Shown: one piece after another, positions 1 through 11,758 of the stretch
Layout of the letters: each line of letters starts with the position of its first letter
Numbering within the stretch: position 1 is the stretch's first letter
Source: a virus
Lineage: Duplodnaviria > Heunggongvirae > Uroviricota > Caudoviricetes
IMG/VR virus record: IMGVR_UViG_3300037307_000441
Reading direction: 5' to 3' (one strand)
DNA length: 12,377 bases
Made by a program: the position numbers and the translations under genes
The notes under the pieces: model-generated
The model's database searches: none
What the model was told of the DNA's origin: nothing
Seen by the model: the letters and a program-made list of their open reading frames with translations, nothing else

Positions 1-1377
1 TAATCCGCCATATGTATTAGTAGCACACTGACTTCCACTAGCTACCGATAATGTGGCAGTAACTTGTCCAGTTAGATCACCCTGCCATGTAAATCCAACA
101 TTAACAATAGTATTGGAGTTTATTGGGCTATTAGATCCATCTCTTAGTTTTGCCGTAACTTCTATTTGACCACTTCCGTTAGATTGAGCTGACATACAAA
201 GGTCTGCATAAACTTGTAGACTTGTCGTTGTTGTCGTTGTTGTACTTGTCGTTGTTGTTGTCGTCGTTGTCGTCGTCGTTGTCGTCGTTGTCGTCGTCGT
301 TAATGGACAATCCGCAACTAAATTTTGTAGGAACAATCCAGAATTTATATAACTACCTGATGTATATAATAACTCTAAATTCGAAGGAGTTGCGTTGCCA
401 TATGGTGGCATAGAATTTAATATGCTGGTTAGTGATGAAAAACTATTACCATAAACATCAACTCCTAATGCTCCAACAGAACCTTGATTATAATTTACGA
501 CAGTTATCCTTCGTATACCGGCTGATATAGTAACTGGGTAGATATTCCACCACCTAAAAAACTCCGCATTACCGAAGTTAGTTTGACTAAAAGCTGTAAC
601 ACCATCTATAGCTATTTGTCCACCATTATCAAATCCAGTTCCTATATAATATGTTCTAGTGGTGGGTACATTTATTGTAAAATTCAAAAAACCATTACCG
701 ACATATTGAAGTTGTGTAGTTGGGTTAACAGGCACATTGGTAGCATTCCACAATCCAGTTCTATTTAGTCTGCCAGAGGTGGCCCCGGTTGTTATATTAA
801 TCCACCAAGAATTAGACCAAGTTCCAGTATTAACCACCCCGCTATAGGTTGCCGCAATTACAATAGGAGTCCCATCATAATTATATGATGAAAATATCTT
901 AATACCTTGCCATCCATAAGCGGCATTTGCTGAAGCAACTGATTGGCCAGTGATAGCACTGCAACTGCCCCCAACAGAATATGTCGCGTTTACTAAATTT
1001 GATATAGCATACCTTCCATCCCAATTTCTTCTTACACAATAACTATTTCTACCAGAAAAGGTTACTGTAATCAAATTTTTATAATAAGTAACTAAAGTAG
1101 CACTTCCTGTAGCTGCTCCACTTGCAGAGAAACCAACACATCTATAAATAGCTTCTTGACCATAAAAAGCGGACATGCTGAATCCTGCTGTTTGTTTAAC
1201 CCCAGCGGTAGCGACGTTGCCTGGTCTAAAAAAATAAGATAAGGAAAACGTACCAGGTGTTCCAGCTCCACTTGGGCCTGGAATCGGTCCTGCTAAACTA
1301 TGTTGTATACTCATTGTATATCCAACTTCATCAGCTATTAAATCAGTAGAAAGAGGACCAGCAACTGGTAATGGCAT
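1..1377 (-). CDS. Putative virion surface/adhesin (fibre-like) protein with a PA14-like beta-sandwich and a poly-Thr linker; partial, runs off the left edge (at least 459 aa)
   Basis: Not in the ORF track. Hand translation from ATG at 1377 is open for 459 codons to position 1: MPLPVAGPLSTDLIADEVG...GFSMSAFYG...TRTYYIGTGFDNGGQIAIDGVTAFSQTNFGNAEFFRWWNIYPVTISAGIRRITVVNYNQGSVGALGVDVY...CPL-T18-S-T7-S-LQVYADLC... It is G/S/T/N-rich, its N-terminus resembles the M(A/P)LPxSGPxS...(I/F)S(L/M)SxFYG leader common in phage glycine-rich fibre/adhesin proteins, and AATATATAG lies 21 nt upstream. Confidence 0.8.
   Translation of the reverse strand, partial: MPLPVAGPLSTDLIADEVGYTMSIQHSLAGPIPGPSGAGTPGTFSLSYFFRPGNVATAGVKQTAGFSMSAFYGQEAIYRCVGFSASGAATGSATLVTYYKNLITVTFSGRNSYCVRRNWDGRYAISNLVNATYSVGGSCSAITGQSVASANAAYGWQGIKIFSSYNYDGTPIVIAATYSGVVNTGTWSNSWWINITTGATSGRLNRTGLWNATNVPVNPTTQLQYVGNGFLNFTINVPTTRTYYIGTGFDNGGQIAIDGVTAFSQTNFGNAEFFRWWNIYPVTISAGIRRITVVNYNQGSVGALGVDVYGNSFSSLTSILNSMPPYGNATPSNLELLYTSGSYINSGLFLQNLVADCPLTTTTTTTTTTTTTTTTTTSTTTTTTTSLQVYADLCMSAQSNGSGQIEVTAKLRDGSNSPINSNTIVNVGFTWQGDLTGQVTATLSVASGSQCATNTYGGL
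220..300 (-). repeat. (ACG/ACA)n trinucleotide tract encoding T18-S-T7-S
   Basis: Read directly: the plus strand shows gtc/gtt triplet runs; the minus-strand frame gives 25 Thr and 2 Ser. Confidence 0.95.
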
Positions 1378-1397: not shown

Positions 1398-1406
1398 CTA
1401 TATATT
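1398..1406 (-). promoter_or_regulatory. Putative phage late promoter AATATATAG
   Basis: The 8-mer AATATATA ends 21 nt before the ATG at 1377; the same motif and spacing occur before ATG 7424 and ATG 9434. Confidence 0.6.
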
Positions 1407-1431
1407 TAAAACTTTGCTTCTTGTAATTTAT

Positions 1432-1462
1432 TTTGTAATTTCAATTATTTTTCGTATATTTG
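1432..1462 (+). promoter_or_regulatory. Bacteroidota sigma-A-type promoter (-33 TTTG, 19 nt, -7 TATATTTG)
   Basis: TTTG at 1432-1435 and TATATTTG at 1455-1462 match the TTTG-N19-21-TAnnTTTG consensus; 15 nt upstream of ATG 1478. Confidence 0.8.
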
Positions 1463-1477
1463 TATAAAATATAGTAT

Positions 1478-1738
1478 ATGTTTTACAATCTAATCAGATT
1501 ATTTGGGTTTTTATTCTTTATATTTTTGATATTTGCCTTTAATGTGTTAGTATCATTAGTTATTTTATCAATGCTTATCGTTCCTGCCACATGGGTTTAC
1601 TCAAAAATGATAGGTAGAAGTTACAATTCTGTCATTGATAGTTCAAATATGTTATATAAATTAAACAAATTTGGTCAATGGGCTTTGGTCATTTTTGGAT
1701 CAATATATTTTATGTATCTTATAATTTTAAATAGTTAA
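1478..1738 (+). CDS. Small integral membrane protein (2-3 predicted TM segments), function unknown
   Basis: 86 aa with long hydrophobic stretches at the N- and C-termini; first gene behind the promoter. Confidence 0.75.
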   Translation: MFYNLIRLFGFLFFIFLIFAFNVLVSLVILSMLIVPATWVYSKMIGRSYNSVIDSSNMLYKLNKFGQWALVIFGSIYFMYLIILNS

Positions 1739-1739
1739 T

Positions 1740-1934
1740 ATGAAATTTTTTTATTTAGTATCAATTTTATTTATGATATCTTGTCATGACAAGTCGGCAC
1801 CTAAAATTATCACATCAAAATCGGTTAGTATAACTGGAACTTGGTTGTATAAATATGATTGGGGTGGAAAGGAGTTTTGGTTTGAGGAAAAGTTAGATAA
1901 ATATAATGTTGGTGATACATTAACCGGAAAATAA
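1740..1934 (+). CDS. Small putative lipoprotein
   Basis: MKFFYLVSILFMIS-C: basic N-terminus, hydrophobic core and a lipobox-like Cys15; starts 1 nt after the upstream stop. Confidence 0.7.
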   Translation: MKFFYLVSILFMISCHDKSAPKIITSKSVSITGTWLYKYDWGGKEFWFEEKLDKYNVGDTLTGK

Positions 1935-1964
1935 ACTTTTTCGGTTTTTTATTTTATAAAAAAT

Positions 1965-2540
1965 ATGCATACAATCAATATTAAAATCGAACAGATATTA
2001 GAAGAATGCCCATTTGTGCAAGAATGGATAGATGTTCTTAAAAAGGATATTCTTAAAAAAGAAATAAATAACTCTTCAATAATTTCCTATTACAGTTATG
2101 GATTTTTTGTTAAAAAATCTGAAAATAATATGGATTCTATTATCGATAGAATAGAAAATAATTTTAAATTAAAATATGATGACAGACTTAAAGAAGAGCT
2201 TTCTAAAGTAAGAGTAGATATTATATTACAGATGGGAAATGTGGTATTTTCTAACAGAGTAGAAAAAAATTTTATTCCTAAAACAATATCTGATATTATT
2301 ACAGAAATAACAAAAATTAAGATGAATTTAGAATTTGAAGAACATGGTGATATTGAAATAAAAAATACAATACCACCCTATAGTGATACCGTTATTATAG
2401 AATTTATCGATTATTCTAATCAATCAGAAGAAATTGAATATGATATGGATGATCTTTTAGATAAGATTCACAACCAAGGATACGACTCATTAACACCAGA
2501 AGAAAAATCATTTTTAGATAAAAAAAGTAAAGATGTATAA
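1965..2540 (+). CDS. Hypothetical protein with a C-terminal DUF6576-like helical motif
   Basis: The C-terminus MDDLLDKIHNQGYDSLTPEEKSFLDK resembles the (V/I)DxILDKIxxxGYxSLTxEEK motif at the C-terminus of Bacteroidota rhomboid proteases (recognised from memory). Confidence 0.65.
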   Translation: MHTINIKIEQILEECPFVQEWIDVLKKDILKKEINNSSIISYYSYGFFVKKSENNMDSIIDRIENNFKLKYDDRLKEELSKVRVDIILQMGNVVFSNRVEKNFIPKTISDIITEITKIKMNLEFEEHGDIEIKNTIPPYSDTVIIEFIDYSNQSEEIEYDMDDLLDKIHNQGYDSLTPEEKSFLDKKSKDV

Positions 2541-2994
2541 AATATTACTTATTTTATTATTTACCCCATTATCACTTTTATCACAAAAGATATATAAGTC
2601 AAATTCTACTTTTAGTGAAGATATATTGTTCACTATAAAAAATGATAGGGTATACGAAAAAAACTCTACTTTTAGTAACGATATAATTTTAACCATAAGT
2701 GAAAATAAAATTTATAAAGGTAGAAATAATACTCAGAGTAATTTAATCTATATTATTGAAGATAATATAGTATATAAATTTAGTAAATTAACACAAAATA
2801 TTGTCTTTACCAAAAAAGATAACTTTTTATATAAAAAAAATAGTACATTTAGCAGTGATATATTTATAAACATAGATGGTAATAAAGTGTATCAAACAAG
2901 TAAGTCATATTCACAAAACTTAATTTTTAATAGTAATGAGAATATTGATTTAGTTGAATTAACAGCAATTTTATACTTACTAAAAATAATTTAA
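2533..2994 (+). CDS. Secreted protein built from six ~20-aa tandem repeats
   Basis: Signal peptide MYKILLILLFTPLSLLS followed by Q, then repeats KIYKSNSTFSEDILFTIKND / RVYEKNSTFSNDIILTISEN / KIYKGRNNTQSNLIYIIEDN / IVYKFSKLTQNIVFTKKDN / FLYKKNSTFSSDIFINIDGN / KVYQTSKSYSQNLIFNSNEN. Confidence 0.8.
   Translation: MYKILLILLFTPLSLLSQKIYKSNSTFSEDILFTIKNDRVYEKNSTFSNDIILTISENKIYKGRNNTQSNLIYIIEDNIVYKFSKLTQNIVFTKKDNFLYKKNSTFSSDIFINIDGNKVYQTSKSYSQNLIFNSNENIDLVELTAILYLLKII
2587..2943 (+). repeat. Six imperfect 57-60 nt intragenic repeats (protein repeat x(I/V/L)YxxNSTFSxD(I/L))
   Basis: NSTFS recurs three times (DNA aattctacttttagt, aactctacttttagt, aatagtacatttagc) with ~20-codon periodicity. Confidence 0.8.
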
Positions 2995-2995
2995 T

Positions 2996-4180
2996 ATGTT
3001 TGATGTTGAAAAATATCTTAAAAAAGCTCTTCTAAAATTAAAGCTTAACTATGGTCTGCCTAAAAGTGGGTTTATTGCGGGTGGTTCGATAGCTAATCTA
3101 ACATGGGAGATGGTGTCTGGTCACAAAGCTGTAGTAAATGATATTGACATATTTATTGTTGATAATAGTAACGAAGATAAAATTTATCAATTTGAGAGAA
3201 AAGAATTAGAGTATTTTGAAACTTATGGTCAAATATCATACACTACCAAGGTAAAAGATAGTTATAAAATACACGAATCATCAAACGATGGTATATTTAA
3301 TCGTATTACATATTCTTCTAAAAATACTTCACCACAAATTATAATTGACTCTTTTGATATCAATTCAGTAATGGTTGGATACTCTGTAGATGAAGATAAA
3401 TTCTATTATAGACCAGAATTTGTAGAATTTCTAAAAACAGGTGTATTAAAAGTAGTAAACTTACACACCCCAGCACATACTGCTATAAGATTAATTAAAA
3501 AATCAAATGAGTTAAACGCCAAGGTAGATGAATTAGAATTTAAGATTTTATCACATTGCGTAAAGAATAAACTTCATTTTTCTGATATAGATAGGTATCG
3601 TTTTTTACAGAGGTATGCTGATATGTTTGAAAAATATAAATCCTTTTTACTTAGATATTTTGAACTTAAAAGAGACGCTGAAATAGAAGAATACTTAAAA
3701 GAATCTAAAAAGGTAGAAACTCCTGTTTATTATATTGAACCAATTTCTGAATTTAATTTTGGGGAATTCAAACATAGTATGGCATCTGATTTTTTATTTT
3801 ATGTCAGAAATGTTTTTATAAAGGGTGATGAAAAATTATTTAACATATGGAATAATCTTCATTTTTATTTCAAAGATATTAATTATGTAAATGGTGATGA
3901 AAAGGATGAAGACATAAAATATTTAACTAAGCTTTCAAATCTATATCCTAACATAATCAACAATCTTAAAGGAATGAATTTTGCGGAACAAATAAATATT
4001 GTAAGAAATGTTATGCAAAAAATAACAAATTACTATGACTATGATACAGCCATTTCAGTTTTAGAAAATATTAAATTAAGTAGAAACACCAAGTTTGATG
4101 AAGATAGTTGTTTAATTATAGGTTTAAGTGTAAGAACAAAGGTAAGAAGAAATGATAACAAACCACATTTACCTTTTTAA
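2996..4180 (+). CDS. Nucleotidyltransferase with a poly(A) polymerase/CCA-adding-enzyme-like head domain
   Basis: GFIAGGSIANL...VNDIDIFI matches the (Y/F)xxGGxxRD...DxD class II NTase signature; DSFDINSVMVGY aligns with RRDFTINAMAY. Confidence 0.65.
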   Translation: MFDVEKYLKKALLKLKLNYGLPKSGFIAGGSIANLTWEMVSGHKAVVNDIDIFIVDNSNEDKIYQFERKELEYFETYGQISYTTKVKDSYKIHESSNDGIFNRITYSSKNTSPQIIIDSFDINSVMVGYSVDEDKFYYRPEFVEFLKTGVLKVVNLHTPAHTAIRLIKKSNELNAKVDELEFKILSHCVKNKLHFSDIDRYRFLQRYADMFEKYKSFLLRYFELKRDAEIEEYLKESKKVETPVYYIEPISEFNFGEFKHSMASDFLFYVRNVFIKGDEKLFNIWNNLHFYFKDINYVNGDEKDEDIKYLTKLSNLYPNIINNLKGMNFAEQINIVRNVMQKITNYYDYDTAISVLENIKLSRNTKFDEDSCLIIGLSVRTKVRRNDNKPHLPF

Positions 4181-4186
4181 CTAAAA

Positions 4187-4717
4187 TTATATTTGGTTTC
4201 TCCCAGCTTCGCTTATGTAGACAACTCTACCCTTATCCTCATCATACACCATTATTCTTTTTATCTCATCTATCCACTCTCTTTCAGTTTTATTGTAAAC
4301 TTGTTCTTTAACCTTTTTGATTATATAATCAACATCCTCTCTATTTTTAAAGTTGAATATATTTGATAATTTTAGATATTGAAATCCTGACTCTAAATAT
4401 TTTTCCATAGTGGGCCATTTCTTCATTCTTTTTTCAATCAACCTTAATCTTTTCCTTATCTTGTTTAATTTAGATGGTATTTCAATATCATATTTTATAT
4501 CTTCAAGAATTTCATATTCTGCTTTTTCTACATAATAGTTATCAATAGCGGTGTTGACTAAAAAATCAATTTTTTTATCAGTTGAGAAATTTGCCCAAAT
4601 TGGAGTTACCACAGGGGCCATAATTAATCCAAAAAACATTTGAGCATAGTAGTTAAGATTTCTCTCTTGTCCTATTGATTCATTTACAAAATCATCAAAT
4701 TTATTTATATGTTTCAT
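4187..4717 (-). CDS. Hypothetical protein with a capsid-targeting-like N-terminus (MKHINKFDDFVNES); probable internal head protein
   Basis: 176-aa ORF; the N-terminal peptide resembles T4 IPII/IPIII MKTYQEFIAE; AATATATAC lies 8 nt upstream. Confidence 0.7.
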   Translation of the reverse strand: MKHINKFDDFVNESIGQERNLNYYAQMFFGLIMAPVVTPIWANFSTDKKIDFLVNTAIDNYYVEKAEYEILEDIKYDIEIPSKLNKIRKRLRLIEKRMKKWPTMEKYLESGFQYLKLSNIFNFKNREDVDYIIKKVKEQVYNKTEREWIDEIKRIMVYDEDKGRVVYISEAGRNQI

Positions 4718-4718
4718 A

Positions 4719-5981
4719 CTAATTGTATATATTATTTTTAATAAATGATGAATAATTCATTAAAATAGACTCTCTAACAAGTTGATAACCTTTACCTATT
4801 TTTTGTAATTTTTTTCTATTCTTTTTCAAATCAGATCCAAACTTATTTAAATTAGCTCCTTTTTGGTATATAAGAAAATCAAGTTGAGCATCTGTTAGTT
4901 TTCCATCATTTTTATCAAACTCAGACATAATCAAATTGTAAAAATCATGTCTGTTTAATTTTTCTATACCAAAATGTTTTTTAAAATCCTCAAGATTATT
5001 AAAGACTAAATCATTCATATAAATCAAACCATTTTGAACACTTATTTCTAATTCATCATCTTCATGCCATTTAGTGAAATGATATTTTCTACCAGATTTG
5101 AAGTGATATAAATAATTCTTATAACTTCTAACTTCTTGACAAACATAATATAAGTTATCTAATATAGTAAATACTTCTTGGAATATTTTTTGATCGTTAG
5201 ACAGTTGTATTTCTTCGGTTTCTAATCTAGAATCAATTTGATAATTTCTATCAAGCAATCTAACGGTTGGTAAGTTATCCCATTTTATTTTGATGGCGGC
5301 TTTCGCAACACTTTCAACATATTTAATATCCACATATTCATTTGTGGTGTGTTCATTATAAACCCCTACTGATAGGTTAACAATTTCAGGAATTAAATCT
5401 CCAAAAAATGCCGTATCTGTATAATAACCAGTTCTATCTTTTTGATAATCAATGCCATTTGATTTAAAATCTTCAATTAACTTATCAGCAAATTCATCTG
5501 AACAACAACTTCTTCCAAATTGACGTGTTATTAATTGCCCCTTTTCTTTTCTATCAAATGATACAGCCCTTTTGAATTTTTTAAAAAATTCAGGATTAGA
5601 TTCAATTGCTAATAAAGAACCGTGTGGTAAATCTTTATGAACGGCACCTTCTTCACCTAAGAAAAAATAATAAGTTCCTGGAACAAAATTTTCAATCATA
5701 TAAAACAAAACGCAACACCCTGCTTTATTATCACCCCCCAAAATTGTGGTTCCGTCAGTTTTGATTATATTTCCGTTTATTATATGATTGACTTTTTCTT
5801 TCTTATCGGTTGATACATCTAGGTGTGATGTAAATAAGGTTTCTGAAGTTCCAATTTGATAGTAATAATTACCAACCGAATCTTTTTTCCATCCACTTGG
5901 TAGTAGATGCTCTAGTTCCGATTCGTGTCCAAAAGGTATTGTCCACTCTGTTAATTTTAAAAATGTATCTTTAAAGTTCAT
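4719..5981 (-). CDS. M20/M28-clan zinc metallopeptidase (probable start 5981, MNFKDTF; the track starts at 5993)
   Basis: Full set of clan MH ligands: TSHLD (His), GGDNKAG (Asp), LGEEG (Glu-Glu), SFDR (Asp), NEHTTNE (His). ATG 5981 lies 1 nt after the upstream TAA, the same coupling as at 4717. Confidence 0.85.
   Translation of the reverse strand: MNFKDTFLKLTEWTIPFGHESELEHLLPSGWKKDSVGNYYYQIGTSETLFTSHLDVSTDKKEKVNHIINGNIIKTDGTTILGGDNKAGCCVLFYMIENFVPGTYYFFLGEEGAVHKDLPHGSLLAIESNPEFFKKFKRAVSFDRKEKGQLITRQFGRSCCSDEFADKLIEDFKSNGIDYQKDRTGYYTDTAFFGDLIPEIVNLSVGVYNEHTTNEYVDIKYVESVAKAAIKIKWDNLPTVRLLDRNYQIDSRLETEEIQLSNDQKIFQEVFTILDNLYYVCQEVRSYKNYLYHFKSGRKYHFTKWHEDDELEISVQNGLIYMNDLVFNNLEDFKKHFGIEKLNRHDFYNLIMSEFDKNDGKLTDAQLDFLIYQKGANLNKFGSDLKKNRKKLQKIGKGYQLVRESILMNYSSFIKNNIYN
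4725..4733 (-). promoter_or_regulatory. Putative late promoter AATATATAC embedded in the last codons of the peptidase gene
   Basis: The motif lies within codons N-N-I-Y, 8 nt before ATG 4717. Confidence 0.4.
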
Positions 5982-5982
5982 A

Positions 5983-6216
5983 TTAGTCAACATATATTAA
6001 TACTATATCATCATCAACATCATATTCTTCTCCATTTGTTATACTAATCATAAAATAAGAGGTGCTATCTAAATTAGAATTATAAACAATAACTTTTTTA
6101 TCATCATCGATGTTGGATAAAAGTTTTTTTAAATCACCAACTGTTGTTGGAGCCTCCAACTTTAGCCTAAATTCTTTGTCAATATCTTCTGTAATAATCT
6201 TTGTAAATTTTTTCAT
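5983..6216 (-). CDS. Small acidic hypothetical phage protein with a targeting-like N-terminus (MKKFTKIITE)
   Basis: 77 aa; TVGDLKKLLSNIDDDKKVIV resembles the common phage MTVxELxxxLxxxxxDxxV motif; co-oriented within the cassette. Confidence 0.75.
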   Translation of the reverse strand: MKKFTKIITEDIDKEFRLKLEAPTTVGDLKKLLSNIDDDKKVIVYNSNLDSTSYFMISITNGEEYDVDDDIVLIYVD

Positions 6217-6230
6217 AAATATTTATATTT

Positions 6231-7424
6231 TTAATCATCATCATCATATCCAGCATTGTGGTCATAATCATCTTCATAATCATCATCTTCAGACCACTCT
6301 ATATATGTTGATTCAGGAAAACTTTGATTACTAATTTTCCCAGTATCTGGATTCCATTTATCCATTGTATCAACAGATGGAAATTTTTCCATACCAGTTT
6401 CTTTTAACTGAGCAACATATGTATTATTATAATTATTACCATCATCTATTGCATCCCATTCCATATGTTTTGCATAATCCTTAAATATTTTCACATCAGA
6501 ATCATTACTAACATATATTCTATCCATCATTTTTTTACCATCAACTAAATTCCATACCAGAGCTCTACCAACTATTTTATCAGGATTTTCATCTGATTTT
6601 AATATTAATAACTTTACTGTTTCTGGATTCTTAATGTATATCTCTAACCAGTCTAATCTACCAACCGCTTGACAAGATGATCCTAAACTCCCTTTATGTG
6701 GATGTAAATAGTTTTTTCTGTGATACCAAAAACCTAAATCATCTCCCTCTACAATTTCAAAATTAGAAAAAGCATCATTTATAACTTTAAGAGTTCCCTT
6801 AAAATCATTTACAAATTTTTCTATTTCACTGTCACTTACATTATTAATTCCATTTGCTGATAATAAACTCCTGACTAATCTTCCAATTCTTATTTCTTGT
6901 CTACTTTTGTTAAACACTATTTTATATAATTTATCTTTAGCATCTTTTAACTTTTCATAATTATAGACCCCTTGACCATTTTCAAATTTAACATAACACC
7001 ATGTTTTTCCACTTTTTTCTGACTTAATTTTACTTACAATCTCACCAATTTCTCCACCTTGTGGGTTATATACTTCCTTTGTTGTTGGAACATATCCAAG
7101 TGAATCGAAAATATTTTTATTAGCTTCTACATTATTAGTCAACCATCCACCTCTTCCCCCCTCATAACTAACTACTTCTTTATCTGTCTTTAATACTTCT
7201 TGAGCAACTCTGTCTGGAGTAAAGGTTAAAGATGAATCATCGTCTTTCTTTATACCAATAAAATTAGCAGTTACATTTAGATCTTTATTTTCAATCTCTA
7301 ATAATTTAGAGGCAATTTTATTATCACTCATTTTATTGAGCACTTTTTTAAATTTATCAGAATAAATTACATTAGATTCTAATAAAAGAGATTCAATTAT
7401 AAATTCAGAATAATTAGTTATCAT
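6231..7424 (-). CDS. Conserved phage protein of the SC(M/Q)...GRALxW...MDRIY type (possibly GNAT-like) with a capsid-targeting-like N-terminus and an acidic tail
   Basis: 397 aa; motifs RQEIRIGRLV, GSLGSSCQ, IVGRALVW, MMDRIYV; N-terminus MITNYSEFIIES; C-terminus EDDDYEDDYDHNAGYDDDD. The fold assignment is inference. Confidence 0.75.
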   Translation of the reverse strand: MITNYSEFIIESLLLESNVIYSDKFKKVLNKMSDNKIASKLLEIENKDLNVTANFIGIKKDDDSSLTFTPDRVAQEVLKTDKEVVSYEGGRGGWLTNNVEANKNIFDSLGYVPTTKEVYNPQGGEIGEIVSKIKSEKSGKTWCYVKFENGQGVYNYEKLKDAKDKLYKIVFNKSRQEIRIGRLVRSLLSANGINNVSDSEIEKFVNDFKGTLKVINDAFSNFEIVEGDDLGFWYHRKNYLHPHKGSLGSSCQAVGRLDWLEIYIKNPETVKLLILKSDENPDKIVGRALVWNLVDGKKMMDRIYVSNDSDVKIFKDYAKHMEWDAIDDGNNYNNTYVAQLKETGMEKFPSVDTMDKWNPDTGKISNQSFPESTYIEWSEDDDYEDDYDHNAGYDDDD

Positions 7425-7441
7425 TTAATAAGAAGTATTTT

Positions 7442-7472
7442 TTTGTATATATTAAATTTTTAGTTATATTTG
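7442..7472 (+). promoter_or_regulatory. Bacteroidota sigma-A-type promoter (-33 TTTG, 19 nt, -7 TATATTTG)
   Basis: TTTG at 7442-7445, TATATTTG at 7465-7472; 14 nt before ATG 7487. Confidence 0.8.
7445..7453 (-). promoter_or_regulatory. Putative late promoter AATATATAC
   Basis: The 8-mer ends 21 nt before ATG 7424 and lies in the spacer of the opposite-strand sigma-A promoter. Confidence 0.6.
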
Positions 7473-7486
7473 TAGAAAGTGTATAT

Positions 7487-8101
7487 ATGATACCTACTTT
7501 AGATTCAATTATTAAAATATCTGGAATACATCCCTCAAGGGTATTTAATGTATACCTATTTGGTTCAAGGGTTTATGGAACTTCTGATCTCAACTCGGAT
7601 TGGGATGTTATTATGATTGCAAATAATCATGCCGAATCAACTGAAATTCGTAGAGGTATTTTTAATATTCATGTTTATACCCCGGATAAATTTAGAAAAG
7701 ATTTAGATTGGCATCGCATCAATAATTTGGAATGTATTTATGCCCCTGATTGGGCTAAGCTTAAAGAAGCCATAAAATTCGACGACTTCAAGATTCATAA
7801 AAATAAATTACGACACGCTATTTCTCACATTAGTTCAAATTCTTGGGTTAAGTGTAGAAAAAAAATGGAGGTCGAAAATGAATATTATATTGGTATTAAG
7901 TCACTATTTCATTCAATTAGAATTCCTATGTTTGCTACACAAATAGTAGAATTTGGAAAGATAAGGGATTTTGAGTGTGCGAATTTTGTGTGGGATAAAT
8001 TAAAGAAAAATCATTTGACATGGGGAGAGTTGGATAGAGAATTTAGACCATTATTAAATTCGACTATGACACAATTCAGAAAATTAGTACCAAAAATTTA
8101 A
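7487..8101 (+). CDS. Pol-beta-superfamily nucleotidyltransferase, RlaP-like
   Basis: YLFGSRVYGTSDLNSDWDV (GS...DxD); NIHVYTPDKF...NNLECIYAP and KSLFHSIRI...IVEFGKI follow the RlaP/PF10127-type pattern. Confidence 0.75.
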   Translation: MIPTLDSIIKISGIHPSRVFNVYLFGSRVYGTSDLNSDWDVIMIANNHAESTEIRRGIFNIHVYTPDKFRKDLDWHRINNLECIYAPDWAKLKEAIKFDDFKIHKNKLRHAISHISSNSWVKCRKKMEVENEYYIGIKSLFHSIRIPMFATQIVEFGKIRDFECANFVWDKLKKNHLTWGELDREFRPLLNSTMTQFRKLVPKI

Positions 8102-8104
8102 TAT

Positions 8105-8887
8105 ATGAGAAATAATTCAAATAATTATCATTTTGGTCGTCATGTATTTGATTATTTTCCATGGAATAAATATAATAATGAGAATATTTATTCTGATCCG
8201 GTTGTAAATATGGAGATACATAGAGATTTCAAATTTGCTTTTTCTGACGAGTTTTCTCCGGCTTCATTTTTTTGGTATGATAATTCAGTGACGATAAGTA
8301 AATTATCTAATATATTTAATGATGATAGTAGAATATACCGTGGTCCAAATAATATAATAACCTACCGAGGAATAAGTGAAACTGCCTATACTTGGGAAGA
8401 TATTGAAAAAATTAGGTTAAGATGTATATTTGGTGTTGAAGATGTGGCAAATAGATATATGAAAATTATTGATCTTTATACTAAAAATAGATATTTGATA
8501 TTAGATGCACTCTATTTAGATTCTGGTGAAGAAGAGATAGAAACACCACTCATTAGTTTATCAGATATAGTAAATAGGGAGCAAGAAGAACTGTGTATGG
8601 AATTTATATCAGAGAGTGATGTATATGAATCTATTAATAAAAGAAATTATAAAAGAAACAAATTCACCGACTCTATTAGTGAATTCTTTAGAACTCGTGG
8701 ATATTTAACTGAAAAACAAGTAAGCGCATTTGCTAAGACATCTTATAAAGAAATTCTATCTAATAAAGACATGGTTTTTTTTAGTATAAAGACAAACAAA
8801 CTAAGAAATATTGATAGAATGATTAAATATTTTGAATCAATCGAATTAACTTGTAAAAAAACAAATAATTTATTATTAATTTACTAA
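8105..8887 (+). CDS. Hypothetical protein
   Basis: 260-aa ORF, 3 nt after the upstream stop; its C-terminal FTDSISEFFRTRGYLTEKQ resembles a recurrent phage FxxSI...GxL(S/T)xKQ motif. Confidence 0.75.
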   Translation: MRNNSNNYHFGRHVFDYFPWNKYNNENIYSDPVVNMEIHRDFKFAFSDEFSPASFFWYDNSVTISKLSNIFNDDSRIYRGPNNIITYRGISETAYTWEDIEKIRLRCIFGVEDVANRYMKIIDLYTKNRYLILDALYLDSGEEEIETPLISLSDIVNREQEELCMEFISESDVYESINKRNYKRNKFTDSISEFFRTRGYLTEKQVSAFAKTSYKEILSNKDMVFFSIKTNKLRNIDRMIKYFESIELTCKKTNNLLLIY

Positions 8888-8898
8888 TTTATAATTTT

Positions 8899-9129
8899 AT
8901 GTTCTTCAATAAAAAGCAAAGAAATAAAGAAACAGATTCACTTATCAATGAATATAAAAATATTCAAGGAAGTATAGATTTTTTAGAAAATGAAGTATCC
9001 AATTATATCATAAAATCTTTAAAGGAAGATGTTGCTCAATATATCAATAATTTAAAATCTGGTTCAACTGCACATAAAAATGTCTATTGGTATATAGAAA
9101 AGGAGTTAGAGCAAATGAGTTTATATTAA
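8899..9129 (+). CDS. Hypothetical protein (76 aa), possibly the 5' half of a frameshifted gene
   Basis: ATG start with operon-like spacing; overlaps the next open frame by 43 nt. Confidence 0.6.
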   Translation: MFFNKKQRNKETDSLINEYKNIQGSIDFLENEVSNYIIKSLKEDVAQYINNLKSGSTAHKNVYWYIEKELEQMSLY

Positions 9130-9401
9130 AAAAGAATATTAGATTAGAAATCAATATTATGACCAATGGTTTTTTTGATGAAAAATTTGAAATAAATGAA
9201 ATCAAAATGATTAACCCAAGACATATGAATATAAAAATAACTAAAGAAATAAAAGATATAATATTCAAATATGTAATGGAATTTAAAATAAGTAGTCTAA
9301 ATTCTAAATTAGAAGAAACTAAGAATGCATTCGCTTCGATAGAAAATTTGGTTGGTAAATCAGTAGTCAGAGATTCAAAAATTGATAATATATTTAAATA
9401 A
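9087..9401 (+). CDS. Hypothetical protein with a C-terminal RDSKIDNI motif (start uncertain: TTG 9087 or ATG 9159)
   Basis: Open frame ending VVRDSKIDNIFK; the same octapeptide occurs in the 10232..10555 product. Confidence 0.65.
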   Translation: MVYRKGVRANEFILKKNIRLEINIMTNGFFDEKFEINEIKMINPRHMNIKITKEIKDIIFKYVMEFKISSLNSKLEETKNAFASIENLVGKSVVRDSKIDNIFK

Positions 9402-9404
9402 AAT

Positions 9405-9413
9405 AATATATAG
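9405..9413 (+). promoter_or_regulatory. Putative late promoter AATATATAG
   Basis: In the 32-nt intergenic gap; the 8-mer ends 21 nt before ATG 9434. Confidence 0.6.
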
Positions 9414-9433
9414 ATAAAACTATACTATTTTTA

Positions 9434-10237
9434 ATGGCATTAATTAAAAAATTCGAATCACTATCAATTGACACAACTATAGAACACTGTAAAGACGTTA
9501 TTGAGACTTTATCTGATTTCGAAGATGATGTTGAAATTAAAAATTATGCCATAGGATATATATATTCGGATAGGGTAGAACAAAATCCAACAACAGAAAG
9601 GGATAAAAAAGGTATAAAATTTAATTTATTCTTAAAGAAAGAATTCAAATCAATAACAGGTAAAGAATCTTTTGATGATCAAATATTTTTACTACAAAAA
9701 TCTAAATACCTTTACTCTAAAATACGTAGTTACTGTGATGAAATAAAAATAGATGTAAGAACAGGATACGTTACATTTATTTTACAATTTGAAAATACTG
9801 ATGAATCAATAAAAAATAAAGCTAAATTAAATAGGGTTTATAAAGGATTGGGAGAAGCTCTTAAGGATTATGATAGGTTTAAAACTATTTATCTATCATC
9901 TGAAGAGCAATTAACTAAAGCTAATAATGATTATTATAAAGATTGTTTAAATATATTAAGATCAATTAATAAAGGTTTAGAAAAGAAAAAGGAATTCACA
10001 CATTTCAGATTTTCAGTTGATATGTCAGAGGAAAATGGTATTATTACTTTAAAACCAAAGCAATTCAGGTATAAAGATGGTTATAGTTGGAAGACAGTAA
10101 GATATAATTCTGAGTTGGCAAAAAATGTTGTTAGATGTTTACAACATAACTTAGAATCAGGGTATATCTATAATGTTAGTCGTGGTGATATAAAGTATGA
10201 GGAAAAAGATACCGAACTAAAGATTATAATATTATAA
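9434..10237 (+). CDS. Hypothetical protein with a MALIKKFES leader; possible internal head protein
   Basis: 267-aa ORF with its own AATATATAG motif and a short (I/L)KKFES leader. Confidence 0.75.
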   Translation: MALIKKFESLSIDTTIEHCKDVIETLSDFEDDVEIKNYAIGYIYSDRVEQNPTTERDKKGIKFNLFLKKEFKSITGKESFDDQIFLLQKSKYLYSKIRSYCDEIKIDVRTGYVTFILQFENTDESIKNKAKLNRVYKGLGEALKDYDRFKTIYLSSEEQLTKANNDYYKDCLNILRSINKGLEKKKEFTHFRFSVDMSEENGIITLKPKQFRYKDGYSWKTVRYNSELAKNVVRCLQHNLESGYIYNVSRGDIKYEEKDTELKIIIL

Positions 10238-10555
10238 TCTTGATTGTGATAATCCAGTATCATCCGGGTCATATTTAAAATCTAAGTAAAATAATTCACC
10301 TCTTGGCATTTCTTTATAATAATCAGGATGTTCTTCTGGTTTCATTTCTTTATATTCTTTTCCTTCTATAATATTATCAATTTTACTATCACGATTTATA
10401 GCATTTACTTCTGCTTTAATTTCATCAGTAGCAAATCCTACTTTACCAAAAGGATCAACAGATACTAAATCCATTCCGATTGTTTTTGATGCAACTTTCA
10501 TTACCATTGGAAACAATGAATTAAAATCAGTTTCTTCCCACTTTTTATTTTTCAT
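10232..10555 (-). CDS. Mini-protein resembling a fragment of T4 gp23-type major capsid protein (Gol region) with a ~45-aa insertion
   Basis: LFPMVMKVASKTIGMDLVSVDPF...MPRGELFYLDFKY aligns with gp23 VMGMVRRAIPNLIAFDICGVQPM-NSPTGQVFALRAVY (gp23 sequence from memory). Confidence 0.6.
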   Translation of the reverse strand: MKNKKWEETDFNSLFPMVMKVASKTIGMDLVSVDPFGKVGFATDEIKAEVNAINRDSKIDNIIEGKEYKEMKPEEHPDYYKEMPRGELFYLDFKYDPDDTGLSQSRL

Positions 10556-10736
10556 TTTTAAATATTATTTTTCTATAATATGAAAGAAGCTTCCGATGTT
10601 CTTTGAATTCATCATCATCGGAAGCTTTGTGACCTTTAGAAATAGCTAAAACAATTTCTAATTCCATCTTAATAATTTGACTTATTAAATATTCTTTATC
10701 TACCTTGTCCTCTATAATTTCTTTCTTTTTTTTCAT
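10545..10736 (-). CDS. Hypothetical protein (probable start ATG 10736, or a later ATG near 10667; the track's TTG start lies inside the upstream gene)
   Basis: Open frame MKKKKEIIEDKVDKEYLISQIIKMELEIVLAISKGHK...; its stop overlaps the start of the next gene. Confidence 0.55.
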   Translation of the reverse strand: MKKKKEIIEDKVDKEYLISQIIKMELEIVLAISKGHKASDDDEFKEHRKLLSYYRKIIFKNEK

Positions 10737-10827
10737 GTTTATTATAAGCCTTTTTATATTTACCGCTTCTTCTTTTACCAAAACTTACTTTGTTGCTGGA
10801 TGTAGATCCCCCTTTAGCTTTTGCCAT
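10696..10827 (-). CDS. Small basic protein (43 aa) ending in YRGQGR
   Basis: Not in the track. Hand translation: MAKAKGGSTSSNKVSFGKRRSGKYKKAYNKHEKKERNYRGQGR*. A C-terminal YRGQG(R/K) is a motif I recognise from small basic proteins of T4-like phages. First gene behind AATATATAC. Confidence 0.8.
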   Translation of the reverse strand: MAKAKGGSTSSNKVSFGKRRSGKYKKAYNKHEKKERNYRGQGR

Positions 10828-10866
10828 TTTTATATGTTTATTTTTTATGTTGGTTTAACCAATAAA

Positions 10867-10875
10867 GTATATATT
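10867..10875 (-). promoter_or_regulatory. Putative late promoter AATATATAC
   Basis: In the divergent intergenic region; the 8-mer ends 40 nt before ATG 10827. Confidence 0.5.
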
Positions 10876-10876
10876 T

Positions 10877-10909
10877 TTTGTTAAAATCAGAAAAAAATAA
10901 TTATATTTG
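10877..10909 (+). promoter_or_regulatory. Bacteroidota sigma-A-type promoter (-33 TTTG, 21 nt, -7 TATATTTG)
   Basis: TTTG at 10877-10880, TATATTTG at 10902-10909; 16 nt before ATG 10926. Confidence 0.8.
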
Positions 10910-10925
10910 TGGTAAAATTTAAACT

Positions 10926-11222
10926 ATGGCAACAATCCAAGGATTAAAAATCAATGAGGCTGAATATGAATTAGAAAATGGTGAAAAAGCTAAATTAGCC
11001 GTTCTGCTTTATGCTGGAGAAGAGGACCCAAAACCAATATTAGATTGGGCAGTCGCCAACTATACAGAAGGTAGTGGTGGTAAATATTATGAATTAATTG
11101 ATGCTGAATTAAATTGTCCTTGGGTTAGAGTTATTCTAAGTAATATTAACGACATGAAACAAATTACTTGGGCGGAAGCCATGAGAGAAATAAAACTTAA
11201 TAAATTATTAGATATAAAATAG
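10926..11222 (+). CDS. Hypothetical protein with a C-terminal REIKLNKLL motif
   Basis: 98-aa ORF directly behind the promoter, 2 nt before kptA. Confidence 0.75.
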   Translation: MATIQGLKINEAEYELENGEKAKLAVLLYAGEEDPKPILDWAVANYTEGSGGKYYELIDAELNCPWVRVILSNINDMKQITWAEAMREIKLNKLLDIK

Positions 11223-11224
11223 AT

Positions 11225-11758
11225 ATGGAAATAACAAGAAAATCAAGATTGTTAGTAAGAGCGCTAAGACATGACCCATCATCATTGGGGTTGACGCTGG
11301 ATCCTAGAGGGTGGGTGAGTGTCAGTGATGTATTAAAATCATTATCGATTGACAAAAATTCTCTGGATATTATGGTCTCCACTAACAACAAAGGTAGGTT
11401 TGAATATAACGACAATAAAACCAAAATAAGAGCATGTCAGGGGCACTCTATAAAAACACTTGAAGTTTATAAAGATTGGAAAATATTTGTACCTGACTCT
11501 GATTTGTACCACGGGACAGCTACCAAATCGGTAGACCAAATATTAAAATCTAAATTGATATCGAAAACAAGAACACACGTTCATCTATCAAAAGATTTAG
11601 AGACTGCATATAATGTCGGTGCTAGACATGGAACACCAGTAATATTAAAAATAGATGCGGTCAAAATGCAAAAAGATGGATTTAAATTCTATGAGTCTAA
11701 AAATGGTGTAGTATTAGTTGATGAAGTTCCGAATAGGTATATACAAGTTATTTTTTAA
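11225..11758 (+). CDS. kptA: RNA 2'-phosphotransferase (KptA/Tpt1), NAD+-dependent
   Basis: All hallmark motifs present: LRHDP, GWVSV, KGRF, IRACQGHS, LYHGT, RTHVHLS, GARHG, NGVVLVDEVP. Confidence 0.95.
   Translation: MEITRKSRLLVRALRHDPSSLGLTLDPRGWVSVSDVLKSLSIDKNSLDIMVSTNNKGRFEYNDNKTKIRACQGHSIKTLEVYKDWKIFVPDSDLYHGTATKSVDQILKSKLISKTRTHVHLSKDLETAYNVGARHGTPVILKIDAVKMQKDGFKFYESKNGVVLVDEVPNRYIQVIF

Follow-up and report, generated by a model that had tools for sequence, protein, structure and literature searches.

Promoter-like motifs in the window

The window, i.e., the whole analysed stretch of 12,377 nucleotides, is part of a huge freshwater T4-related phage of the 'Mahaphage' kind, with hosts predicted to be Bacteroidota. 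Ahead of genes on both strands it carries two recurrent motifs, a late-type box of the form AATATATAS and a two-part host-type element ending in TATATTTG. The relevant features, with predicted transcription starts and leaders, are as follows:

1398-1406, minus strand: late-type box AATATATAG, then an A run; AATATATAS match and context; would drive the gene 1-1377 (minus)
1432-1462, plus strand: host-type TTTG-N19-TATATTTG; pattern match; predicted start 1467, predicted leader 11 nt; would drive 1478-4180 (plus)
4725-4733, minus strand: late-type box AATATATAC; AATATATAS match, 7 nt before the ATG at 4717; would drive 4187-4717 (minus)
7442-7472, plus strand: host-type TTTG-N19-TATATTTG; pattern match; predicted start 7477, predicted leader 10 nt; would drive 7487-9401 (plus)
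7445-7453, minus strand: late-type box AATATATAC, then an A run; AATATATAS match; predicted start ~7441/7440
9405-9413, plus strand: late-type box AATATATAG between co-directional genes; AATATATAS match; predicted start ~9417
10850-10862, no strand assigned: palindrome TTGGTTTAACCAA, read from the sequence; within the predicted leader of the late transcript from the 10867 box
10867-10875, minus strand: late-type box AATATATAC with no A run; AATATATAS match; long predicted leader of ~36 nt
10877-10909, plus strand: host-type TTTG-N21-TATATTTG; pattern match; predicted start 10914, predicted leader 12 nt; would drive 10926-11758 (plus)

The initial annotation had reported five AATATATAS copies, each just 5' of a start codon, and the search returned exactly these five, all sense-oriented and preceding the starts at 1377, 4717, 7424, 9434, and 10827. 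Shuffled windows contained 1.47 matches on average, and a count of five was reached in 4 of 200 shuffles. The plain 8-mer AATATATA is indeed not rare by itself (6 copies versus 5.45 expected), and position and spacing had been named as the evidence for the motif; the sixth copy, at 9559-9566 on the minus strand, is intragenic and, as had been pointed out, lacks the G/C, the next base being T. The G/C is separated from the ATG by 20, 7, 20, 20, and 39 nt; therefore, the 21-nt spacing ascribed to three boxes is true when counted from the last A. The 4725 box had rightly been placed upstream of the ATG at 4717, but it represents a second, near-leaderless class with a spacing of 3-8 nt, seen in the related phage genome LR756504.1, rather than the 21-nt class. 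It is not intergenic, lying within the 3'-terminal codons of the upstream peptidase gene 4719-5993, and its predicted start at ~4720 would yield a nearly leaderless mRNA for 4187-4717, the product of which begins MKHINKFDDF.

The 1398 box, with a predicted start at ~1394/1393 and a predicted leader of ~17 nt, fits the class-B consensus of LR756504.1 (T-rich/AATATATA/N3/AAAA). The 7445 box is predicted to drive the minus-strand genes 6231-7424, 5983-6216, and 4719-5993 (peptidase), the 9405 box the gene 9434-10237 (plus), whose product begins MALIKKFES, and the 10867 box the gene 10696-10827 for a 43-aa basic protein together with the minus-strand genes that follow. None of the five box-downstream genes of the window could be placed in a recognised structural family.

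The host-type pattern TTTG-N17-22-TANNTTTG matched three times, always on the plus strand, once per divergent gap, and each match ends 14-16 nt ahead of the plus-strand ATG, in agreement with the earlier description of TTTG-N19/19/21-TATATTTG in all three divergent gaps. The count alone is not significant (3 versus 1.19 expected, with 24 of 200 shuffles reaching 3), and the weight for this motif rests on position and conservation. All three sites match the Bacteroidota sigma-A -33/-7 consensus (TTTG, TAnnTTTG), whose elements have been positioned in Flavobacterium, with the -7 box occupying -12 to -5 (PMC9723704). The predicted starts 1467, 7477, and 10914 are all A residues located 5 nt after the -7 box G. 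Together with the retention of the motif in relatives, this match bears out its previous assignment to host sigma-A. At 7442-7472 the minus-strand box 7445-7453 sits inside the spacer of the host-type promoter, as had been noticed, and shares G7445 with TTTG.

Conservation of both motifs in close relatives

The syntenic relative L002 is 67%-83% identical to the window at the DNA level (~76% over the longest blocks) and contains exactly five AATATATAS copies, all orthologous to those of the window. Across the five boxes 40 of 40 bases are identical, against 75.5% identity in the ±40-nt flanks, and at the ninth position G and C interchange between the two phages; for example, the L002 ortholog of the 1398 site reads AATATATAC. 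In alignments of the window with L002 and a second relative, L038, both motifs appear as identity islands. The site orthologous to the 4725 box in L002 lies 5 nt ahead of the ATG, and the 9405 box has the identical sequence and the same 20-nt gap. The 7445 box is kept in L002 and L038 despite a different downstream gene in each. Both relatives also retain the 10867 box and its leader, with gaps of 40-41 nt from the last A to the ATG, the called gene for the 43-aa basic protein, and the palindrome, kept as TTGGTTTTACCAA, which is a candidate hairpin or protein site.

Among the host-type promoters, cGTATATTTGTATAAA at 1432 is identical in L002, with diverged spacer and flanks, and the core TTTGGTATATATTAAATTT..GTATATTTGTA at 7442 is common to all three genomes. 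At 10877 TTTG and TATATTTG are kept in L002, while in L038 an insertion is present and the box reads TATCTTTG. In the alignments of the window with its relatives, no further conserved element appeared upstream of the minus-strand units in the three divergent gaps.

Genome-wide enrichment and architecture of the late-type box

The functional reading of the box was drawn wholly from relatives rather than from the window's own genome. The main reference was LR756504.1, a complete related phage of 636 kb with 903 genes from crude gene calls (ATG starts only, the most upstream ATG taken). An unbiased 8-mer scan of 60 nt upstream of these genes, corresponding to the enrichment check suggested earlier, ranked the box words ATATATAC (14×), ATATATAG (13×), and AATATATA (12×, upstream of 113 genes) first, followed by Bacteroidota -7 boxes of the TAnnTTTG type. 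The same two classes came out on top in a 7-mer scan of the window with L039, L003, and L001. A third class in LR756504.1 has the two-part structure AAACTT-N15-17-TATAAT.

With 478 copies, ATATATA is less frequent in LR756504.1 than any other 7-mer of its composition, yet 34.5% of its copies are located no more than 35 nt sense-upstream of a start, compared with 2.5%-17%, mostly 3%-5%, for the other 34 7-mers of the same composition. The full AATATATAS occurs 90 times, 51 copies being sense-upstream and 10 antisense. The T4 box TATAAATA has no sense-upstream excess in this genome (29 sense versus 23 antisense of 321), and six of its seven copies in the window are intragenic. The box is therefore a variant and not the canonical T4 box, a distinction already drawn in the initial annotation. 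The base following AATATATA in LR756504.1 is A, C, or G, with T alone disfavoured, so the trailing G/C described as part of the motif stands as a habit of the window's lineage and does not extend to LR756504.1.

The box-to-ATG gap in LR756504.1 is bimodal, with peaks at 4-5 nt and 16-26 nt; 62 genes fall at 3-8 nt and 103 at 14-27 nt. Logos of the 103 and 62 sites contain information only in the box, a short T tract just upstream, and a downstream A run, which in the long-gap class lies 4-6 nt after the box, with no information at -35. The window sites fit this logo. The host TAnnTTTG box shows an equally sharp peak, 4 nt from the ATG, which corresponds to +1 at the ATG because this box spans -12 to -5 (PMC9723704). 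The spacing pattern shared by the late box and the host -7 box suggests that the promoter ends at -5/-6 and that many late mRNAs are leaderless. The late-type element would comprise a T-rich tract, AATATATA, and any base but T, forming a -10-only box with no -35 element that ends at about -5/-6, with an A 4-6 nt downstream as the most likely transcription start. The distance to the ATG would set the outcome: at 1398, 7445, and 9405 the mRNA would have a leader of ~17 nt, and at 4725 it would have no leader or almost none.

Genes behind the box and its probable reader

In all four complete relatives compared (LR756504, LR756501, LR745206, and LR756502), the box precedes the genes of the gp23-family capsid and gp20-family portal proteins, and in LR756504.1 also the tail sheath gene and the terminase operon, as had been anticipated for structural genes. 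The related phages with the box ahead of capsid, portal, and tail-sheath genes are 0.6-0.7 Mb in size. The association with structural genes is not exclusive, since in LR756504.1 the box also precedes a DNA helicase and a fragment of a DNA polymerase. The ten largest host-type genes scanned include CCA-adding enzyme, RNA ligase, DNA polymerase, and AAA ATPase. In the window the host-type promoters, with leaders of 10-12 nt, would drive RNA-repair and nucleotidyltransferase genes, and Tpt1/KptA is included in 10926-11758. The TTTG-N19-21-TATATTTG class would represent a Bacteroidota sigma-A -33/-7 promoter read by unmodified host RNA polymerase, presumably early, and the late box would drive virion and other late genes.

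A distinct phage sigma factor had been proposed, and the relatives do encode a candidate. A 134-aa protein beside the head genes (L015:12391-12795) matches phrog_234, 'late sigma transcription factor' (E 8e-10), and its only PDB match is T4 gp55. Homologues with 55%-93% identity occur across many contigs of 0.5-0.77 Mb, and with further matches in LR745206 and LR756502, three of the four complete relatives have a member of the family; the phrog_234 search of LR756501 gave no match. The RNA polymerase beta subunit was not found in LR756504.1 by a search whose control was positive in 14 of 14 genomes. No gp45-type clamp (PF09116 or PF02916) was detected in LR756504.1 in two weakly controlled searches, one run without a positive control and the other with a control below the cut-off. 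In T4, late promoters consist of a -10-only box requiring gp55, gp33, and gp45 (PMC6024815). Group-2 jumbo phages encode a minimal sigma and no RNA polymerase, and gp33 orthologues have been reported in gp23-type jumbo phages in general (PMC7824862).

The AATATATA box most likely represents the form that the T4 late promoter takes in this phage group, and T4-type late promoters would thereby gain a new consensus variant, AATATATA. Taken jointly, it is likely that the window contains two promoter classes, the Bacteroidota sigma-A type and the T4-type late box, that the latter is the clade's T4-type late promoter, most likely recognised by host core polymerase in combination with a phage gp55-family minimal sigma, and that the back-to-back layout has no dedicated switch role.

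An unlikely alternative is that the box is real and phage-specific but is read by an ECF-like sigma with regions 2 and 4 or by a phage-altered host sigma-A. In LR756504.1 the gp55-like protein is accompanied by three ECF-like sigmas that could in principle read the box, and LR756501 lacks a phrog_234 match though its capsid and portal genes carry the box; the failure of the weakly controlled searches to find the gp45 clamp family in LR756504.1 points the same way. However, ECF-type sigmas normally require a -35 element, whereas the box-class logo contains no information upstream of the T tract, and the two-part AAACTT-N15-17-TATAAT class suits a region-2+4 sigma better. Moreover, the gp55-like gene adjoins the head genes, and among these proteins its product shows the strongest conservation within the clade.

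Back-to-back promoters and other explanations

In the window each of the three divergent gaps combines one promoter of the host type with one of the late type, and no more than 36, 51, and 73 bp separate the predicted starts. This layout had been interpreted as an early/late toggle repeated along the genome, which was not upheld in LR756504.1: among its 122 divergent gaps, host/late pairs number 14 versus 14.8 expected under independence, with 15 late/late and 3 host/host pairs. The layout would follow from the T4-like distribution of early and late units over opposite strands. A dedicated early/late switch acting by exclusive occupancy, especially at 7442-7472, and helping to shut off early units seems marginally less probable still than a different reader. 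The 31-bp core at 7442-7472 is kept with both boxes in three genomes, and mutual exclusion appears sterically plausible there, given a distance of 36 bp between the predicted starts. However, the downstream gene of each box explains its presence, and a conserved pair needs no interaction.

It is quite improbable that the box is not a promoter but an A/T-rich translation-initiation or mRNA-processing signal in a host group without Shine-Dalgarno sequences. The box is always close to start codons, and Bacteroidota leaders are A-rich and unstructured, replacing Shine-Dalgarno sequences (PMC6847099). On the contrary, the enrichment is word-specific, with most 7-mers of the same composition not enriched, the distance to the ATG ranges from 16 to 41 nt around an invariant box, and the short-gap peak falls where the sigma-A -7 box has its own. 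The box also segregates by gene function and is the only upstream element conserved for the minus-strand units of the three divergent gaps. An origin by chance or from the composition of AT-rich intergenic DNA, with which the counts of the plain 8-mer and of the host-type pattern would agree, is ruled out by the top rank of the box in unbiased scans of independent genomes, the composition-matched 7-mer control, the 40/40 retention against 75.5% flank identity, and the 51-to-10 strand asymmetry.

Comparison with known promoter systems

Like T4 late promoters, the box is a -10-only A/T element without a -35 region, and it is predicted to end a few bases before the start. In the relatives it likewise precedes capsid, portal, and tail genes, and a gp55-family minimal sigma is encoded, with no RNA polymerase found in LR756504.1; late and early units also tend toward opposite strands. 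In contrast to T4, the box is AATATATA and matches TATAAATA, which is not enriched here, at six of eight positions, the host phylum is Bacteroidota with its own -33/-7 promoters, and a large subclass with the box 4-5 nt from the ATG is predicted to give leaderless mRNAs. T4 also needs the gp45 clamp, a family not found in LR756504.1 (in weakly controlled searches). The T4-like cyanophages S-PM2 and Syn9 use the late promoter NATAAATA (PMC2984593), also a lineage-specific variant of the T4 late box that was recognised by upstream-motif analysis, lies by late-gene homologues, and occurs with g55. The variable position differs: the AAATA core is kept there, whereas the box described here is an alternating ATATATA.

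The host-type promoters match both elements of Bacteroidota sigma-A promoters in the transcription start map of Flavobacterium psychrophilum, with 19-21 nt spacing (PMC9723704), but their predicted leaders of 10-12 nt are shorter than the median of 24 nt in that species, and a subset in the related phage is predicted to be leaderless. Bacillus phage SPO1 relies first on host sigma-A and afterwards on its own sigmas for the middle and late genes (PMC13401047). The related phage similarly orders host-type, third-class, and late-box promoters by sigma and structural genes; unlike in SPO1, this order is inferred from motif placement only, and the late sigma is of T4 type and not SPO1 type.

The placement of host-type promoters ahead of the ECF-like sigma genes of LR756504.1, of AAACTT/TATAAT ahead of its gp55-like gene, and of the late box ahead of structural genes suggests a cascade. 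As a tentative and rather doubtful extension, four proposals may hold together. Huge Bacteroidota phages may have a three-tier cascade in which sigma-A serves ECF-like sigma genes, AAACTT/TATAAT the gp55-like gene, and AATATATA the virion genes; at 7442-7472 two forms of polymerase would be rivals for a single stretch of 31 bp; the late box may often be fused directly to a start codon and a conserved MK(Y/H)(L/I)K..F N-terminal peptide; and the late promoter, leaderless start, and capsid-targeting-like leader may form a portable cassette copied ahead of many cargo genes.

Organization of the window and its promoter boxes

The window comprises 12,377 bases with a G+C content of 28%, is densely coding, and belongs to a contig of 76 kb, judging by the length given for the contig of its own peptidase. 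Its DNA is present in freshwater metagenomes, with matches in two DNA sequencing runs, one of which is probably the source. Two nucleotidyltransferases, a phrog_4191 peptidase, and a Tpt1/KptA RNA 2'-phosphotransferase were recognised among its products. The strand switches repeatedly along its seven transcription units:

1..1377, minus strand, transcription unit
1478..4180, plus strand, transcription unit
4187..7424, minus strand, transcription unit
7487..10237, plus strand, transcription unit
10232..10827, minus strand, transcription unit
10926..11758, plus strand, transcription unit
11748 to window end, minus strand, transcription unit

Each of the three divergent gaps contained one plus-strand match to the Bacteroidota sigma-A promoter TTTG-N19/19/21-TATATTTG (1432-1462, 7442-7472, and 10877-10909), and the coordinates reported in the initial annotation, including the overlap of this host-type promoter with a second motif at 7442-7472, were as described. 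The second motif, AATATATA(G/C), hereafter the late box, had exactly five matches (1398, 4725, 7445, and 10867 on the minus strand, 9405 on the plus strand). All were sense-oriented 5' of start codons, as had been claimed, and the G/C is separated from the ATG by 20, 7, 20, 20, and 39 nt at 1398, 4725, 7445, 9405, and 10867, respectively. Shuffled sequences contained a mean of 1.47 copies, and five or more were reached in only 4 of 200 shuffles. One correction concerns the box at 4725, which is not intergenic and falls within the final codons of the gene for the peptidase.

Conservation in related contigs and huge phages

Close homologues of the peptidase were found on metagenome contigs, including the syntenic contig L002 (22 kb) and the contig L038 (58 kb). 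The window and L002 share 67-83% DNA identity, and L002 carries exactly five copies of AATATATA(G/C), at all five orthologous places. Taken over the five sites, the eight bases of the box are identical at 40 of 40 positions, versus 75.5% in the 40 nt on either side, and the ninth base was swapped between G and C twice. When the three divergent gaps are aligned, the minus-strand late box and the TTTG and TATATTTG elements of the plus strand stand out from their surroundings as identity islands. The window, L002, and L038 all retain the 31-bp core at 7442-7472, though the gene behind its late box differs in each; at this site the promoter core is fixed and the genes behind it are reshuffled. This place is taken in the window (5983-7486 region) by a 397-aa gene and in L002 (8460-8800) by the 77-aa gene that the window has further downstream; in L038 (9903-10010) the peptidase is preceded by no more than a remnant of 15 codons (MIKLFEGF...).

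Peptidase homologues with about 60% identity were also present in genomes labelled "uncultured phage", 634-735 kb in size. These are the largest ones of Al-Shayeb et al. 2020 and were assigned to the "Mahaphage" clade, with replication predicted in Bacteroidetes (PMC7162821). All functional evidence on the late box comes from such relatives of the window phage. In one of them, LR756504.1 (636,363 bp, 26% G+C), 903 genes were predicted with a simple codon-usage caller under the standard code, giving a coding density of 90%.

Enrichment of the boxes upstream of genes

The initial annotation proposed a genome-wide motif search of upstream regions, and in LR756504.1 the late box was enriched there. 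An unbiased scan of 8-mers in the 60 nt preceding each of the 903 starts, compared with the whole genome, ranked ATATATAC first (14-fold enrichment), ATATATAG second (13-fold), and AATATATA third (12-fold, 113 genes), followed by the Bacteroidota -7 boxes TACCTTTG, TATATTTG, and TATCTTTG. The control consisted of all 35 composition-matched 7-mers of four A and three T. ATATATA was the rarest of them (478 copies), and 34.5% of its copies were located no more than 35 nt sense-upstream of a start, versus 2.5-17% (mostly 3-5%) for the other 7-mers. Copies of AATATATA(G/C) were sense-upstream in 51 of 90 cases and antisense in 10 of 90. A 7-mer scan of 93 genes from the window and the non-orthologous contigs L039, L003, and L001 placed TATATAG, TTTGTAT, and ATATATA on top. 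The G/C following the box did not hold up as a strict requirement across the clade. The proposed distinctness from the T4 late box was borne out: the T4 consensus TATAAATA has two mismatches to AATATATA over eight positions and was rejected as the late box, with 29 of 321 copies sense-upstream, 23 of 321 antisense, and no enrichment in LR756504.1.

Genes behind each promoter class

Structural genes, which had been predicted to carry the box, do so in the relatives. The LR756504.1 genes for the gp23-family capsid and gp20-family portal have a late box 21 and 25 nt before them, respectively, and the tail sheath gene, identified by PHROG, and the gene heading the terminase operon are also preceded by one. 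The box stands 20-31 nt before the capsid, portal, and adjacent head genes alike in LR756501 (735 kb), LR745206, and LR756502. Pfam models PF04984 (tail sheath), PF06841 (gp19 tube), and PF04965 (gp25) gave no match in LR756504.1, several of the Pfam searches having been run without a positive control.

The ten largest LR756504.1 genes behind full host-type promoters include those for a CCA-adding enzyme, RNA ligase, DNA polymerase, AAA ATPase, and TerB-like protein. The separation by function is not absolute, with a helicase and a polymerase fragment also behind the late box and peptidase paralogues under both promoter classes. The phrog_4191 peptidase (window copy 4719..5993) is highly paralogous and occurs in 6 places in LR756504.1; some copies are about 700 aa long, with the peptidase domain in the first ~300 residues, and stand behind late boxes, and others of about 390 aa stand behind host-type promoters.

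The N-terminus MK[YH][LIF][KN] was observed in 25 of 160 late-box genes, 0 of 56 host-type genes, and 11 of 684 others in LR756504.1. In many of these genes the late box is just 4-5 nt from the ATG. This peptide is similar to the T4 capsid-targeting leader. The corresponding N-termini in the window are MKHINKFDDF (4187..4717) and MALIKKFES (9434..10237).

Promoter geometry and predicted transcription starts

In LR756504.1 the distances from the last A of the late box to the ATG are bimodal, with a short class of 3-8 nt (62 genes, sharp peak at 4-5 nt) and a long class of 14-27 nt (103 genes, broad peak at 16-26 nt). Gene starts came from a crude caller, and most of them are probably right, since the spacing peaks are sharp. 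The long-class consensus was T-tract/(A)ATATATA/N3/AAA(A), with a -35 region devoid of information. The host-type TAnnTTTG box behaves alike, peaking sharply at 4 nt (20 genes) and broadly at 16-40 nt. The Flavobacterium sigma-A box covers positions -12 to -5 (PMC9723704), and a 4-nt gap therefore sets +1 on the A of the ATG. On the simplest reading, the ATATATA box would end at -5/-6, with predicted starts on the A run, and the short-gap class would then yield leaderless mRNAs. Applied to the window, this geometry gives the following starts, late and host-type alike on an A:

1394/3, minus strand, predicted late start, leader ~17 nt
4720, minus strand, predicted late start, leader ~3 nt
7441/0, minus strand, predicted late start, leader ~17 nt
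9417/8, plus strand, predicted late start, leader ~17 nt
10863, minus strand, predicted late start, leader ~36 nt
1467, 7477, and 10914, plus strand, predicted host-type starts, leaders 10-12 nt

ATATATA almost equals its own reverse complement, so that one palindrome, such as TTTTTAATATATATTAAAAA, serves both genes of a divergent pair at a distance of about 21 nt from either (for example LR756504.1 genes 390/391, 313/314, and 473/474).

Divergent promoter pairs

In all three divergent gaps of the window a host-type and a late promoter are paired, with predicted starts 73, 36, and 51 bp apart. Steric interference between them is plausible from this layout, above all at 7442-7472. The initial annotation saw in this pairing an early/late "toggle". 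Special pairing was rejected in LR756504.1, where the 122 divergent gaps were compared with the expectation under independence: 14 host/late pairs were observed versus 14.8 expected, 15 late/late versus 13.1, and 3 host/host versus 4.1. Being at chance level, the pairing is best regarded as a side effect of early and late units occupying opposite strands, an arrangement that T4 has as well.

Candidate sigma factor reading the late box

No RNA polymerase beta-subunit gene was found in LR756504.1 by a search whose positive control matched in 14 of 14 genomes. PF00940 (T7-type RNA polymerase) and PF09116 and PF02916 (gp45 clamp) likewise had no match in this genome, again with several of these Pfam searches lacking a positive control. 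Four sigma-like genes were identified, three of them ECF-like with regions 2 and 4. The fourth product, a 134-aa protein encoded beside head genes, matches the PHROG "late sigma transcription factor" family (E 8e-10). Its only PDB match is T4 gp55, over the HNFD..K..N..AY.T stretch, and is weak pairwise (E 0.45). The gp55-like sigma proposed in the initial annotation was thus found in relatives, with family matches in LR745206 and LR756502 as well. Proteins 55-93% identical to it occur on numerous 0.5-0.77 Mb contigs, and a Hymenobacter genome has one too. The latter homologue (P0228, 129 aa, 56% identical) is an annotated product of Hymenobacter sp. APR13 (Bacteroidota, genome of 4.87 Mb); it may represent a prophage remnant and hints at the host range of the phage group.

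The T4 late arrangement consists of a -10-only box before structural genes and a gp55-type sigma, without a phage polymerase (PMC6024815), and the same arrangement was described in general for gp23-type jumbo phages by Iyer et al. (PMC7824862). LR756504.1 resembles T4 in all three respects. The gp55-like protein is a candidate reader of the late box.

Sites of a third promoter-like type, (T-rich)AAACTT-N15-17-(c)TATAAT, number 82 in LR756504.1 (L006-L037) and lie 15-50 nt before starts, including in front of the gp55-like sigma gene (L015:12391-12795) and within the region of the DNA polymerase. Of the ECF-like sigma genes, one is immediately preceded by a host-type promoter, and another belongs to an operon that follows a host-type -7 box. 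The order of promoter classes at the sigma genes suggests a three-step sigma cascade.

Implications for uncultured megaphages

No description of a late promoter in these megaphages was found in the literature searched. Systems of this kind are well known, and the novelty lies in the consensus, the host phylum, the conservation across the clade, and the large subclass predicted to be leaderless. The T4 late system, with its gp55-type sigma and -10-only box, appears here retuned in a phylum with very different promoters of its own. For the largest phages known, which are uncultured (0.6-0.74 Mb, with hosts predicted in Bacteroidota), the late and host-type boxes enable early and late (likely virion) genes to be sorted straight from sequence, gene starts to be corrected, candidate packaged proteins to be flagged, and promoters to be chosen for work in Bacteroidota. 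The prediction of many leaderless late mRNAs is testable.

Other sequence features of the window

A scan for E. coli-type sigma-70 promoters gave 117 sites versus 90 +-10 expected and is uninformative in such AT-rich DNA. A hairpin resembling a terminator (AACCGGAAAATAAACTTTTTCGGTT, then a T run) is located at 1922-1950, directly 3' of the gene 1740..1934 and within a plus-strand unit. The next gene, at 1965, may require its own start signal, neither main box being present there. AAACTTT at 1933-1939 was rejected as a third-class promoter because it is inside the terminator-like hairpin (1922-1946). The perfect palindrome TTGGTTTAACCAA at 10850-10862 lies within the long leader of a gene for a very basic 43-aa protein (10696..10827). 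Being also just upstream of the plus-strand promoter, it could form a hairpin in the RNA or bind a protein. L002 and L038 keep this palindrome as TTGGTTTTACCAA.
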